Origin: a virus
Lineage: Duplodnaviria > Heunggongvirae > Uroviricota > Caudoviricetes
Length of the DNA: 29,766 bases
Strand: one strand, 5' to 3'
IMG/VR virus record: IMGVR_UViG_2541047966_000011
Span: 1 to 29,766 of that record
Part shown: positions 4,507 through 9,166 of the stretch, piece after piece
Position numbering within the stretch: the stretch's first letter is position 1
How the letters are laid out: each line of letters begins with the position of its first letter
Position numbers and translations under genes: made by a program
The notes under the pieces: model-generated
Databases searched by the model: none
What the model saw: only the letters and a program-made list of their open reading frames with translations
Told to the model about the DNA's origin: nothing

Positions 4507-5331
4507 TCAGGCGGTGAAAGTACCAATAAAGGTTTCTACTTTGCTGTCTTTGAATTTCTCAACAAGCAGATCACGAAATTCGTTAGCCATTTCTTCCTGC
4601 ACCGCTTCCAGCTGAATAATGCGCAGAACCAGTACAGGACGATCGCCAGTGATAATGCTGAGGCGTAATTTAAATGGACGTTCTTTCAGACCTTCAAACG
4701 GAACGCATTTAAATTCAAATGCCACTGGCATAATATCTTTGGTCTTCGCTTCGACAGACTCCATCAGGGAGCGTTTGCCGCTGAAGTCATTATCTTCAAA
4801 ATCAGCGGTCTGGTTCGCTTCAATTGTGATTTTACGGATAGCCGCCGCCGCTTTGGTTGCCTGAATGGCGTCACCATTAGCATCAAAGCCCACAAGGTAG
4901 TCGGCCCAGTCTTCAATCCATTCTGCCAGTGATTTCTGGGAGTTACGCTCGCCATTAATAGACAACAGAGCAGAGAACGGTGCTGTCTTTTTCAGTTTGA
5001 GAGTGGCGGTGTTATCTGCGTGACCTGGTTCATCAATAGTACCCAGGTTAAGCACACTGACGGCACGCATATTATCAGCATCGATAAAGCAGCGGGTGCC
5101 TTCATCTGCAAGCTCTTTAGAATAACGGGTAAAGTCATCGATGCTGGCAGTGGAAAGCGCACCACGGAAACGGAAGCGATTTAAATTAAATTTTTCCAGA
5201 TCATGAATGCGGAAATTCTCAGGCAATGCCACAGCATCGGCACCAATCTTACTGATAATTTCATTAACACCCTGAGAAGAAATAAGGGCATGGATTTGAT
5301 TAATTGCGGTTGCGTCTAAGTTCTGAGACAT
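4507..5331 (-). CDS. YfdQ-like protein (DUF2303-type) of unknown function
   Basis: 274 aa; N-terminus [17 protein letters not shown]... matches what I recall of E. coli CPS-53 YfdQ. GAGGA lies 6 nt upstream of the ATG. Confidence 0.6.
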
Positions 5332-6445: not shown

Positions 6446-7120
6446 TTAGGCCTTTATTTTGTATCTTCTTGGTTTTCCTGAGAAAATTACTGTACCAATT
6501 ATAGAGCAATTACCGTTGATCTTAATGTAAGGTTCAGGCCAGTTTGGGTTTAATGCTTTGAGGTAACGCTGTGTTCCATCTTCTATCAACCGCTTAAAGG
6601 TGGTTTCGCCTGTATCGTGCATCAATGCAATAACGTCGTCACCGTGGCAGGCAGGGACTTCAGGATCTACAAAAATCATGTCTCCCGGGCGGTACTCATC
6701 AATCATTGAATCACCAATCACCCGCAAGATATAAGTCATTTCGCCACAGGGTACAGGGCAGGGATAAGTTTCTGCTGTGCTCAAATCAACCTCAGAATAG
6801 CCAACTTCTTTCCATGCTCCGGCCTGTACCCATGATATGACAGGGACTAACGTTATTTGTTTGTTAGTAATTGAAACATCAGGTTTTTTTGTGATGTTTG
6901 TTGTCTGGTGTTCTTGATCAAGCCATCCGACAGGCAGGTCGAAACATTTTTCGATGTGCCGTGCCATGCTGTCACCGATATTTTTAGTAGCACCATCTCC
7001 CATAAACCTGCTGGTCTGGGTTGGCTCGCGATCAATCATGGTGGCAAAGGAAGAATTCCCGCCAACACCATCTCTCAGTTTTCTGGCGTTAGACCGCCGG
7101 ATGTCATGGACTGTTTTCAT
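6446..7120 (-). CDS. CI-like prophage repressor with N-terminal HTH and C-terminal S24 (LexA-like) peptidase domain
   Basis: 224 aa. The C-terminal half contains GDSM (catalytic Ser context) and a downstream Lys, typical of S24 autocleaving repressors. Divergent from the Cro-like gene. No SD upstream of the ATG, so the mRNA may be leaderless. Confidence 0.85.
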   Translation of the reverse strand: MKTVHDIRRSNARKLRDGVGGNSSFATMIDREPTQTSRFMGDGATKNIGDSMARHIEKCFDLPVGWLDQEHQTTNITKKPDVSITNKQITLVPVISWVQAGAWKEVGYSEVDLSTAETYPCPVPCGEMTYILRVIGDSMIDEYRPGDMIFVDPEVPACHGDDVIALMHDTGETTFKRLIEDGTQRYLKALNPNWPEPYIKINGNCSIIGTVIFSGKPRRYKIKA

Positions 7121-7442: not shown

Positions 7443-8006
7443 ATGAGGCTAACCGTGGGTAAGCATCACTGGAAAGTAGAAAAACAGCCTGAGTGGTACG
7501 TGAAAGCTGTCAGAAAAACTATCGCGGCGTTGCCGGGGGGTTACGCTGAAGCTGCTGAGTGGCTGGATGTAACAGAGAACGCTTTATTCAACCGCCTTCG
7601 TGCAGATGGCGATCAGATTTTCCCGCTGGGATGGGCAATGATTTTACAGCGCGCGGCTGGCACTCACTACATTGCGGATGCTGTCGCACAGTCTGCTGGT
7701 GGGGTGTTTGTATCGCTTCCTGAAATTGAGGAAGTAGAGAACGCCGATATAAACCAGCGCCTGCTGGAAGTCATCGAACAGATCGGGAGTTACTCAAAGC
7801 AGATTCGTTCGGCAATCGAAGATGGGGTAGTGGAGCCACACGAGCAGACAGCAATTAATGATGAGTTGTATCTGTCAATTTCGAAGCTCCAGGAACATGC
7901 AGCACTGGTCTACAAAATCTTTTGCGCTCCAGAAAAGAGTGACGCCCGCGAGTGTGCAGCTCCGGGCGTCGTGGCGTTTTGTGTCTGTGGAGAAACTAAC
8001 GCATGA
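7443..8006 (+). CDS. CII-like regulator (YdaT-family-like)
   Basis: 187 aa immediately after the Cro-like gene, the position CII occupies in lambdoid phages. Family assignment from memory, not a visible motif. Confidence 0.5.
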   Translation: MRLTVGKHHWKVEKQPEWYVKAVRKTIAALPGGYAEAAEWLDVTENALFNRLRADGDQIFPLGWAMILQRAAGTHYIADAVAQSAGGVFVSLPEIEEVENADINQRLLEVIEQIGSYSKQIRSAIEDGVVEPHEQTAINDELYLSISKLQEHAALVYKIFCAPEKSDARECAAPGVVAFCVCGETNA

Positions 8007-8151
8007 ACAGTTTAACGGCAAATAACCGTTTGTCGCAACAGCTGGTGGTCAGTGTCGCTGCACACCTGTTGTTACGGCATGAATGCAGATTACCAAATCA
8101 CCTGGCTGTAAGTAACCACAGAGAACTTTACCTGACTGTGGGGGGCGAGTT

Positions 8152-8331
8152 GTGCAGGAACTTAACCGCTGGTTTCGTGACGGAAGAGGACTTTATGTTC
8201 ATGTTATTCGTTGGGAGCCAGAAACACAGCGCGTTATCTATCTTCGCAAAGACTACCCGCATGAGTGCTTTAGTCCTTTGTGGAAATTCAGGCGTGATTT
8301 TGTTGAGTGTGAAGGACCACCAGCACATTGA
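8152..8331 (+). CDS. small hypothetical protein (59 aa), uncertain
   Basis: Not in the ORF track. GTG start after a G-rich stretch (GGGGGGCGAG); translation VQELNRWFRDGRGLYVHVIRWEPETQRVIYLRKDYPHECFSPLWKFRRDFVECEGPPAH. Protein-like composition but no recognised family. Confidence 0.3.
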   Translation: MQELNRWFRDGRGLYVHVIRWEPETQRVIYLRKDYPHECFSPLWKFRRDFVECEGPPAH

Positions 8332-8608
8332 TTCTGCCATTCCGGGACGTTACACTGTTCAGGCACCTTATAAAACGGGTGCCGGGATTGGCGTCCTGAA
8401 ATTGATTACTGAGCATAACCGCGCTCATGCGGTTTTTTCGTGTCATGAGCATTGCTACGCCCAAATTATGGTGGGGCGTACAGGGCCGACTTCGGTCGGG
8501 CCGGGTTCGGTAGTCTCCGGTAACGCCAACCCTGTACGTCTCACCACCTCTGTGATTGGCGTCCCATGTGGTGAGTTTTCTAAAAAACTGACTACCGGGG
8601 CTGTCACC

Positions 8609-9166
8609 ATGACTACTCTCCCAACCCTCTCTCAACCTGAAATTGCCATCGTTGATGGTCAGGCTGTTACATCTTCTTTGGCTGTTGCTGACTTCTTCTC
8701 TAAACGTCATGACGATGTTCTGAAAAAGATCCGCATTTTGGATTGTTCTCCAGAGTTTTGTGCCCGCAATTTTGCGGAGACATCAATTTTGGTACGCCAG
8801 CCCAACGGCGGTACTCGCAAACTTCCTTGCTATCAAATAACCCGCGACGGCTTTGCGTTTCTTGCTATGGGTTTCACGGGGAAACGTGCTGCCCAGTTCA
8901 AAGAGGCATACATCAATGCCTTTAACCAGATGGAGAAACAGCTTTCAAAGCCCTCTGTACCGAGCGACGTTGCACATAACGCCAGCGTTCTCTGTTCCTA
9001 CATTTCATCAATTCATCAGGTCTGGTTGCAGCAGCTTTATCCCATGCTGGAAAAAGCTGAATCACCGCTGGCTGTAAGTCTGTATGACCGAATTAACGAT
9101 GCGGCATTTCTTGCCCGTCTTATTCATTCGTCGCTGAACTCTTCAGAGGTAAGGGGGCGCAAATGA
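8609..9166 (+). CDS. rha: phage regulatory protein Rha
   Basis: From ATG 8609: MTTLPTLSQPEIAIVDGQAVTSSLAVADFFSKRHDDVLKKI...PCYQITRDGFAFLAMGFTGKRAAQFKEAYINAF, a typical Rha N-terminal pattern. The ORF-track frame runs from 8003, but the upstream 200 codons look non-genic. Confidence 0.7.
   Translation: MTTLPTLSQPEIAIVDGQAVTSSLAVADFFSKRHDDVLKKIRILDCSPEFCARNFAETSILVRQPNGGTRKLPCYQITRDGFAFLAMGFTGKRAAQFKEAYINAFNQMEKQLSKPSVPSDVAHNASVLCSYISSIHQVWLQQLYPMLEKAESPLAVSLYDRINDAAFLARLIHSSLNSSEVRGRK

Follow-up and report, generated by a model that had tools for sequence, protein, structure and literature searches.

A putative IsrK–C4 RNA switch upstream of rha in an e14/SfV-type Escherichia coli prophage, overlaid by an over-extended open reading frame

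In phage P1, the C4 RNA is processed from a precursor by RNase P, and the mechanism by which C4 acts at the immI locus of P1 and P7 is said to have been described by Citron and Schuster in 1990. In satellite phage P4, the CI immunity RNA is processed from a leader transcript on which complementary seqA and seqC sites lie upstream and downstream; here it is transcription that ends prematurely, and no ribosome-binding site is occluded. At the immI locus of P1 and P7, the order of elements is a1b1, c4, a2b2, icd, and ant (RF01695, RF03163), and C4 blocks the synthesis of the antirepressor via a2/b2 around a ribosome-binding site, which sets the heteroimmunity between P1 and P7 (2025 review); the c4 and c4-a1b1 motifs were both listed by Weinberg et al. 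(2010; PMC2864571). In Gifsy-1, the isrK promoter, shown by promoter-deletion lacZ fusions to drive transcription, yields the short IsrK RNA as well as a translationally silent isrK–orf45–anrP read-through transcript, and IsrK supplied in trans activates the translation of orf45 and, by coupling, that of anrP, with compensatory mutants (G28A/C162U and G31A/C159U) proving the helix (PMC4825925). An RNA of roughly 80 nt, STnc1160, is processed from the orf45 region, but its constitutive expression did not relieve IsrK toxicity, and the authors regard the activation as a structure switch in cis, not as a titration of processed C4 (PMC4825925). The discussion of the same article uses the P4 CI and N15 CA RNAs as a comparison, and the likeness of these two RNAs to the locus presented here is one of description.

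Here, we analyzed a window of 29,766 nucleotides, which is as a whole an E. coli lambdoid prophage of the e14/SfV type, and focused on the interval between ymfL and rha (positions 8007–8608). We conclude, with a probability of about 0.85, that this interval is a compact control region assembled from known elements, namely a DUF4222 gene followed by an RNA switch that precedes the rha antirepressor gene. All components fall into families already described, and their arrangement is that of Gifsy-1 and P1, so the region is known in kind and unannotated here. Its surroundings include a LexA-like repressor gene on the minus strand (6446–7120) and ymfL (7443–8006; NF041471, 169 bits), itself preceded by a ymfT-like cro. 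The first-pass annotation had pointed to a 387-aa open reading frame spanning both the interval and rha; this ORF is indeed present in the ORF list (8003–9166), and its ATG overlaps the ymfL stop codon in an ATGA arrangement. It had also placed the onset of Rha-like sequence at 8609, and the Rha domain does lie wholly within a 185-aa ORF that starts at the ATG at 8609 (8609–9166, plus strand), encoding a Rha-family regulatory or antirepressor protein (PF09669, 96 bits vs. 29.9; TIGR02681, 92.8 bits vs. 45.95) whose relatives begin at the same ATG.

The interval was aligned with phages mEp460, cdtI, 2H10, and Salmonella phage 118970_sal3, with Stx2c and Stx1 phages and with the e14 element of K-12, and synonymous and nonsynonymous differences were counted in all three frames on these alignments. 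One part of the interval is a DUF4222 gene of 59 aa with a GTG start (8152–8331, plus strand), which is preceded by a G-rich Shine–Dalgarno sequence at 8141–8148, matches PF13973 at 51.1 bits (gathering threshold 27) and phrog_1343 at 126 bits, and has relatives encoded on at least 592 viral contigs. In its frame dN/dS amounts to 0.11–0.31, with synonymous differences only among close relatives, against 1.5–3.3 for the long-ORF frame over the same nucleotides; in the comparisons between K-12 and Klebsiella phages, the DUF4222 frame yields 0.03–0.11. The first-pass annotation had found this GTG-initiated ORF more protein-like than the long frame and had considered an unannotated small gene in the interval: on both counts it was right, as 8152–8331 is a real gene under purifying selection. 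A PDB sequence search with DUF4222 returned noise only, and NCBIfam profiles gave no match for DUF4222, YmfM, the Ash-like stretch, or the 47-codon ORF discussed below. K-12 e14 resembles the window in its ymfK–ymfT–ymfL neighbors, in the ATG lying over the ymfL stop, and in a nested 59-aa DUF4222 ORF, which is absent from the K-12 annotation; it differs in that DUF4222 leads directly into a replication gene, without isrK, C4, or rha.

The DNA between ymfL and the DUF4222 gene corresponds to the first 49 codons of the long ORF (8003–8151, plus strand), whose ATG follows an SD-like GGAG at 7990–7993, and occupies the place that the N-terminal half of ymfM has in e14. Its coding status appears ambiguous. 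Relative to a Citrobacter locus (L003) and to Salmonella phage sal3, dN/dS is 0.34–0.78 in the long frame, and another frame gives similar values in the same comparisons (0.33–0.77). The resemblance to e14 ymfM seems weak as well: the alignment with K-12 ymfM is poor (dN/dS 0.86), the two sequences share only about MNSLT..R.SQ in these 49 codons, and the BLASTP match of the long ORF to YmfM (32% over 99 aa) comes mostly from the DNA shared around DUF4222, read in another frame. In K-12 e14 and the Klebsiella phages, purifying selection acts on the N-terminal half of ymfM (dN/dS 0.31–0.45 in the ymfM frame), and the C-terminal half of this gene, which overlaps the strongly selected DUF4222 ORF, is unconstrained (dN/dS 5–10). 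An AACGG/CCGTT palindrome noted earlier in this part of the window exists, but at 8014–8030, about five bases away from the 8019–8035 first given; the segment 8007–8045 folds at −11.9 kcal/mol (z −3.1). We considered the palindrome as a terminator and rejected it, as it lacks both a U-tract and conservation in K-12 e14. A programmed −1 frameshift from the ymfM-like part into DUF4222, for which the window has a G-run at 8140–8146, was likewise set aside: the K-12 counterpart has no slippery site, and in every lineage DUF4222 is equipped with an SD and a start codon of its own.

Downstream of the DUF4222 gene, the interval is occupied by two RNA families. When the whole window was scanned against Rfam at gathering thresholds, two matches were returned, isrK and C4, both inside the interval (E-values of 1e-16 and 2.5e-12 for the two). 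A search for tRNA and tmRNA genes found none. The IsrK sRNA, of 77 nt (8363–8439, plus strand), covers model positions 1–77 of 77 of RF01394 at 60.1 bits (gathering 50); it consists of a hairpin 1, a hairpin 2 that carries an element called a1 in its loop, an element b1, and an intrinsic terminator found by a terminator scan (plus strand, stem 8417–8434 plus a U-run). The c4-a1b1 motif (RF03163) aligns to 8350–8402 with 21.7 bits, below its gathering threshold of 46.7 (E 0.0048), and passes that threshold in four relatives (L010, L011, L013, and L014), where it overlaps isrK. A putative isrK promoter, recognizable by its sequence, lies directly upstream (8328–8356, plus strand): its −35 hexamer TTGATT (8328–8333) overlaps the DUF4222 stop codon (8329–8331) and is followed, after a 17-nt spacer, by the −10 hexamer TACACT (8351–8356), which ends six bases before the IsrK 5′ end and predicts a start near 8363. 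A simple sigma-70 scan of 7900–8700 returned no promoter, this site staying below threshold with 8 of 12 matches, and the promoter was recognized only through its conservation across genera, both hexamers being kept at equal spacing in 21 loci ranging from Escherichia to Marinomonas and including Gifsy-1 (TTGACA-17-TATATT), without exception among the genera compared.

The second RNA is a C4-type antisense RNA of 88 nt (8464–8551, plus strand), which aligns to RF01695 over model positions 1–87 of 87 with 82.3 bits (gathering 45). It is made of a 17-bp outer stem, a hairpin A (8486–8499), a hairpin B with a loop element b′, and a single-stranded junction a′, and its minimum free energy structure is identical to the Rfam structure (−47.7 kcal/mol, z −6.0, equaled by 0 of 200 shuffles). 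The imperfect hairpin GGCCGAC-ttcg-GTCGGGCC, which the first reading of the sequence had singled out, is found exactly at 8484–8502 and folds at −13.6 kcal/mol (z −2.1); it turns out to be hairpin A, the first inner stem-loop of C4, extended by two flanking pairs. The accompanying idea of a regulatory element was therefore correct in spirit, except that the region holds two RNAs, predicted to be transcribed, with their target sites rather than a DNA hairpin.

The C4 RNA has two recognition elements, each with matching sites upstream, in IsrK, and downstream, in the rha leader. The junction a′ (ACGCCAA, 8523–8529) is complementary to a1 (TTGGCGT, 8388–8394, in the loop of IsrK hairpin 2) and to a2 (TTGGCGT, 8556–8562, in the rha leader), a2 being an exact repeat of a1 located 168 nt downstream, within a repeat D2, GATTGGCGTCC, present at 8386 and 8554. 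The hairpin B loop b′ (TTCGGTAGTC, 8506–8515) faces in the same manner b1 in IsrK (GATTACTGAG, 8404–8413) and b2 in the rha leader (GACTACCGGG, 8590–8599), all of these elements being on the plus strand; b′ and b2 form eight Watson–Crick and two G–U pairs in the window, and b2 overlaps the rha Shine–Dalgarno GGGG (8597–8600), which lies eight bases before the ATG at 8609.

We collected 67 distinct module sequences from related loci and aligned 56 of them for covariation. Within the RNAs (three IsrK hairpins, the C4 outer stem, and the two C4 hairpins), 91% of the cells are paired and 30 of 46 pairs show compensatory changes, a pairing level reached by 0 of 500 shuffles and compared with 38–45% for slid controls. 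Among the individual helices, pairing reaches 99% in the C4 outer stem, where 12 of the 17 pairs show compensatory changes, and 100% in hairpin A, where 5 of 5 do; IsrK hairpin 1 covaries at 6 of 7 pairs. The pairing between the two RNAs is as regular: a1–a′ is 99% paired (compensatory at 5 of 6 pairs) and b1–b′ 98% (7 of 8), and the pairings of C4 with the rha leader, a′–a2 and b′–b2, reach 85–94%, b′–b2 having about 85% of cells paired and compensatory changes at 7 of 8 pairs. The 56 modules comprise 12 types of a′, 30 of b′, and 32 combinations, the targets matching their own C4 each time; another cassette type has, for instance, TTCTTTGGTG as its b′, and the specificity cassettes of E. coli prophages sit between near-identical flanks. 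Loops and targets that are hypervariable and yet matched are the pattern expected of an immunity determinant, and we infer that they may represent an immunity-specificity code.

These results bear directly on what else the interval might be. It lies between the immunity and replication modules, and the fold of the entire segment 8007–8151 is no more stable than those of shuffled sequences (z −0.25), as would be expected if it were decaying spacer or origin-associated DNA in which hairpins occur by chance. Such a reading has, however, a practically negligible probability, given the Rfam E-values and the extensive covariation reported above, the purifying selection on the DUF4222 frame and the presence of matching sequence in 3,154 of 5,426 complete E. 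coli genomes; for 8152–8608, it is refuted by the Rfam matches, selection, and covariation. No iteron-like repeats were found either, the interval having only two-copy repeats of which the longest meaningful one is the a1/a2 target duplicate. Of the range of options offered by the first-pass annotation (an unannotated small gene, a decayed gene, a regulatory element, or an origin-associated one), the small gene and, in spirit, the regulatory element thus survive, and the origin-associated element finds no support; 8003–8151, placed like the N-terminal half of e14 ymfM but barely similar to it, might be a decayed gene.

The same observations decide on the long ORF. Under the annotation currently given to this DNA, the 387-aa ORF, or a version of about 321–383 aa as in PGAP and in phages mEp460 and cdtI, would be a real “Ash-Rha” protein and the RNA matches would be incidental. 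The window, mEp460, cdtI, a Stx1 phage, and Citrobacter all have this frame open, close relatives differ between C4 and rha by indels whose lengths are divisible by 3, the Pfam family Phage_ASH (PF10554) matches residues 117–198 of the long ORF (8351–8596; 38.9 bits vs. a gathering threshold of 26), and the PHROG profiles 821, 995, and 3960 include its N-terminal, Ash-like stretch. Yet the stretch matched by Phage_ASH is translated isrK plus C4, and it does not evolve as a protein: over 8332–8608, dN/dS is about 0.6–1.1 in every frame and about 0.8–1.05 in that of the long ORF, in addition to the high values of the same frame over DUF4222, against 0.20–0.42 from 8609 on. Moreover, the substitutions compensate the RNA stems and change the peptide radically, and a 1-nt insertion breaks the long frame in Salmonella phage sal3. 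Both RNAs are kept in loci where the rha frame is closed, namely 7–25 codons upstream of rha in Aeromonas L022 and several Marinomonas and Endozoicomonas loci, 43 codons upstream in Aeromonas L024, and at most 9 codons away in Gifsy-1. As for the 300–400-codon frames found upstream of rha in Edwardsiella, Izhakiella, and Martelella, which we considered as a possible large protein, at least those of L007 and L011 are the shadow cast by genes on the other strand. A single protein is therefore very improbable; codon-level substitution patterns together with RNA covariation rule out the 387-aa version, and the substitution test of its frame, set beforehand, came out against one protein. The earlier remark that the first ~200 codons show no domain-like pattern needs one correction, the Phage_ASH match, which falls on the two RNA genes and does not reflect conservation of a protein.

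The 387-codon ORF is thus an annotation artifact, a by-product of overlapping parts, which would arise from three sources: a ymfM-like start coupled to ymfL, an alternative frame over DUF4222, and an RNA region that is stop-free in that frame. In the RefSeq and phage records that we examined, the isrK/C4 element carries no annotation, and because the rha call is over-extended, RefSeq/PGAP leaves out the DUF4222 gene or calls it a pseudogene.

With the compact control region as our preferred reading, the locus can be compared part by part with Gifsy-1. The order of parts is shared (promoter, 77-nt IsrK with terminator, structured RNA of ~88 nt corresponding to STnc1160/orf45, regulated gene), the structured RNA begins with the same AUGGUGGGGCG, the a specificity is identical (ACGCCAA/TTGGCGT), and the helix proven by G28–C162 and G31–C159 is the a1–a′ pairing of the window. 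The two loci differ in their b specificity and in their cargo, AnrP in Gifsy-1 and a Rha-family protein in the window, between which no homology is detectable (E 0.89). They also differ in position, the Gifsy-1 module lying downstream of antQ and that of the window in the early-right operon, after ymfL and DUF4222. Furthermore, orf45 ends at an AUGA overlap, whereas its counterpart in the window (8468–8608, plus strand), which starts at an AUG inside the C4 5′ stem, is stop-free over its 47 codons and in frame with rha; the peptide that it would encode is not conserved (dN/dS about 0.9–1). It is these features that distinguish the locus: an orf45 counterpart fused in frame to the cargo, a Rha cargo, a position in the early-right operon, and its own a/b type.

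The parallel with P1 and P7 is of the same order. There too, a C4 with two exposed recognition elements has duplicate targets upstream and downstream on one transcript, the downstream site occludes the ribosome-binding site before the antirepressor, and the variation of loops and targets sets heteroimmunity; the RNA of the window fits the C4 model end to end. The differences are that the a1b1 segment of the window is a separately terminated sRNA, IsrK, that b2 covers the Shine–Dalgarno of the antirepressor-like gene itself and not that of an icd gene, and that the module resides in a lambdoid prophage whose repressor is LexA-like, and not in P1.

On this basis, a scheme of regulation can be proposed, which takes its parts, their pairing potential, and their covariation from observation, and its expression, processing, regulatory direction, and Rha target from homology. 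The isrK promoter would start the 77-nt IsrK, ending at its own terminator, and read-through transcripts would carry the 88-nt C4-type RNA and then the rha leader. By analogy with P1, from which the repressor role of C4 in the IsrK-type subgroup is borrowed, C4, either folded within the read-through transcript or excised from it, would pair with a2/b2 and leave rha untranslated in the lysogen. Free IsrK, with its decoy a1/b1, would compete for the C4 elements and relieve the block, which may permit translation from the C4-internal AUG at 8468 and/or from the rha start at 8609, and Rha could then counter the repression of the prophage. Because AnrP and Rha are not detectably homologous, the downstream effect described in Gifsy-1 (antQ activation and induction) may not be transferable to the window.

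One feature of the E. coli loci is left unexplained by this RNA model alone. In the window, the rha frame is stop-free from 8003 to 8608, and over the 86 E. coli-type loci with a DUF4222 context it is open for 148–203 codons, 202–203 in most. These loci, a sample of those in complete E. coli genomes, fall into eight cassette types, 57–88% identical; over isrK, C4, and the leader, none of the eight has a stop in the rha frame, against 24 distinct stop positions (22 of them type-specific) in the other two frames, counts that are not independent, given the kinship among types and the same-phase duplication of b1/b2 and a1/a2 (186 and 168 nt apart). The avoidance of stops is only modestly skewed over all 56 modules and becomes clear once limited to the E. 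coli DUF4222 context, where it exceeds our expectation for chance. The RNAs could be real and the open frame also be a translated leader, initiated at 8003 in coupling with ymfL or at 8468 and read through the terminator and/or C4 into rha. Pointing in this direction, besides the stop counts, are the 43 of 63 distinct modules that are open from the C4 AUG into rha, the ATGA overlap with ymfL, the situation of an IsrK terminator upstream of replication genes in the same orientation, and a Stx1 phage that has a different gene upstream and whose long ORF again begins 3 nt past the stop codon of that gene; in addition, translation of orf45 was shown in Gifsy-1 (PMC4825925). Given the nonindependence of the counts, the closure of the frame in many functional-looking modules of other genera, and the lack of peptide conservation, we nonetheless consider this alternative unlikely. 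The narrower proposition that selection keeps the E. coli rha frame stop-free from the ymfL stop or the C4 AUG, and does so for a reason other than the peptide, appears doubtful to the same degree. If it were true, ribosome passage would suppress the early-operon terminator and get around the antisense block, the product being a Rha with an N-terminal extension, and the same DNA would serve as two RNA genes and a translated leader.

We return to the RNA switch as the favored reading and to its distribution. We retrieved 74 loci by Rha similarity only, with one genome per species, and in 17 of the first twenty, isrK and C4 both precede the rha start by an almost constant distance, in hosts ranging from Citrobacter, Edwardsiella, Serratia, and Pantoea to Aeromonas and Marinomonas; in two more of these twenty, sRNA-Xcc1 occupies the isrK–C4 position. 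The module is also present in all 80 of the 80 viral contigs retrieved by DUF4222 similarity. In phage 2H10 and in the Stx2c phage, the sequence downstream of the shared start differs again, and because of this and because the AnrP of Gifsy-1 is unrelated to Rha, the RNA cassette is a portable controller for different cargo genes.

The added value of these results is modest, and consists of an annotation correction and of connecting IsrK explicitly with the a1b1 leader of P1. The error corrected is widespread, since RefSeq/PGAP, several phage records, PF10554, and PHROG take the isrK–C4 locus for the N-terminus of an “Ash/Rha” protein. As to the connection, the IsrK system of Salmonella and the C4 immunity system of P1, to which a 2025 review gives separate treatment, are one and the same device, the P1-type a1b1 leader having become a free decoy sRNA in IsrK systems. 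This device is joined to non-homologous cargo, and E. coli prophages carry it in numerous matched specificity types; with related sequence found in over half of the complete E. coli genomes, it offers a useful frame for studies of prophage cross-immunity and induction.

The K-12 e14 positional counterpart of window 8003-8331 is ymfM (e14 locus 4823-5181; 112 aa), annotated as a cell-division inhibitor gene, and there protein-level selection on ymfM is confined to the first ~59 codons. Its second half is overlapped by an unannotated DUF4222 ORF of 59 aa (5002-5181 of the same locus; TTG start, AAGGAG Shine-Dalgarno sequence, Pfam score of 67 bits), to which the purifying selection in this half belongs. 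Since filamentation was assigned to ymfM with the entire ORF cloned, and since neither start-codon nor frameshift mutants came up in a text search of the bioRxiv version of that paper, the active product could be either YmfM or the DUF4222 protein. In Salmonella phage 118970_sal3, a 1-nt insertion at about 1690-1700 of the compared locus (equivalent to window ~8205) brings the ymfM-like N-terminal part into the frame of the DUF4222 core, yielding an annotated CDS of 107 aa (1501-1824). This CDS may be a genuine fusion, or it may reflect a mutation or an error in sequencing. In the window, the ymfM-like/DUF4222 block lies between the arms of a 17-nt inverted repeat (8001-8017 and 8348-8364; 15/17 complementary), one in the region of the ymfL stop and the ATG at 8003 and the other in the isrK -10/start region. 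By a rough estimate, about 0.02 such repeats would be expected by chance in 650 nt, and the repeat could mark a mosaic junction or support long-range RNA pairing.

Regarding the RNA module itself, b1, the decoy site in IsrK, often carries C-to-T changes relative to b2, the site in the rha leader, both in the window (b1 at 8404-8413, GATTACTGAG; b2 at 8590-8599, GACTACCGGG) and in relatives. As these changes replace G-C by G-U pairing with C4, the decoy may be a systematically weaker binder of C4 than the mRNA site. In some genomes, a pair of isrK-C4 modules or of C4 copies with differing specificities lies within about 1-3 kb (L014, 1799-2059 and 2758-3012; L022, 161-248 and 2868-2954; L071, 2406-2649 and 2778-3003), an arrangement suggestive of tandem cassettes for antirepressor control. 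sRNA-Xcc1 (RF02221; L012, 2867-2953; L015, 2862-2952) takes the place of C4 5' of the rha homologue in Providencia and 'Ca. Phlomobacter'. By eye, ATCTACGAG occurs in L012 both upstream and at the Shine-Dalgarno sequence, with CTCGTAG inside sRNA-Xcc1, an arrangement that follows the same logic as that of C4 and suggests that sRNA-Xcc1 is its functional analogue.

In Edwardsiella hoshinae, the long "shadow" ORF fused to rha is produced by two small adjacent ORFs on the minus strand before the module (L007 2169-2685), of 94 aa (2169-2453) and 90 aa (2413-2685), which from their sequences may be a BrnT/BrnA-type toxin-antitoxin pair. In the window, the translation of isrK and C4 (8351-8596) is matched by Pfam PF10554 (Phage_ASH) and, in their N-terminal columns, by PHROG profiles 821, 995, and 3960. 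These "protein" families appear to rest, at least partly, on translated noncoding RNA, and because of them Rha/antirepressor genes are called too long in RefSeq and phage records.
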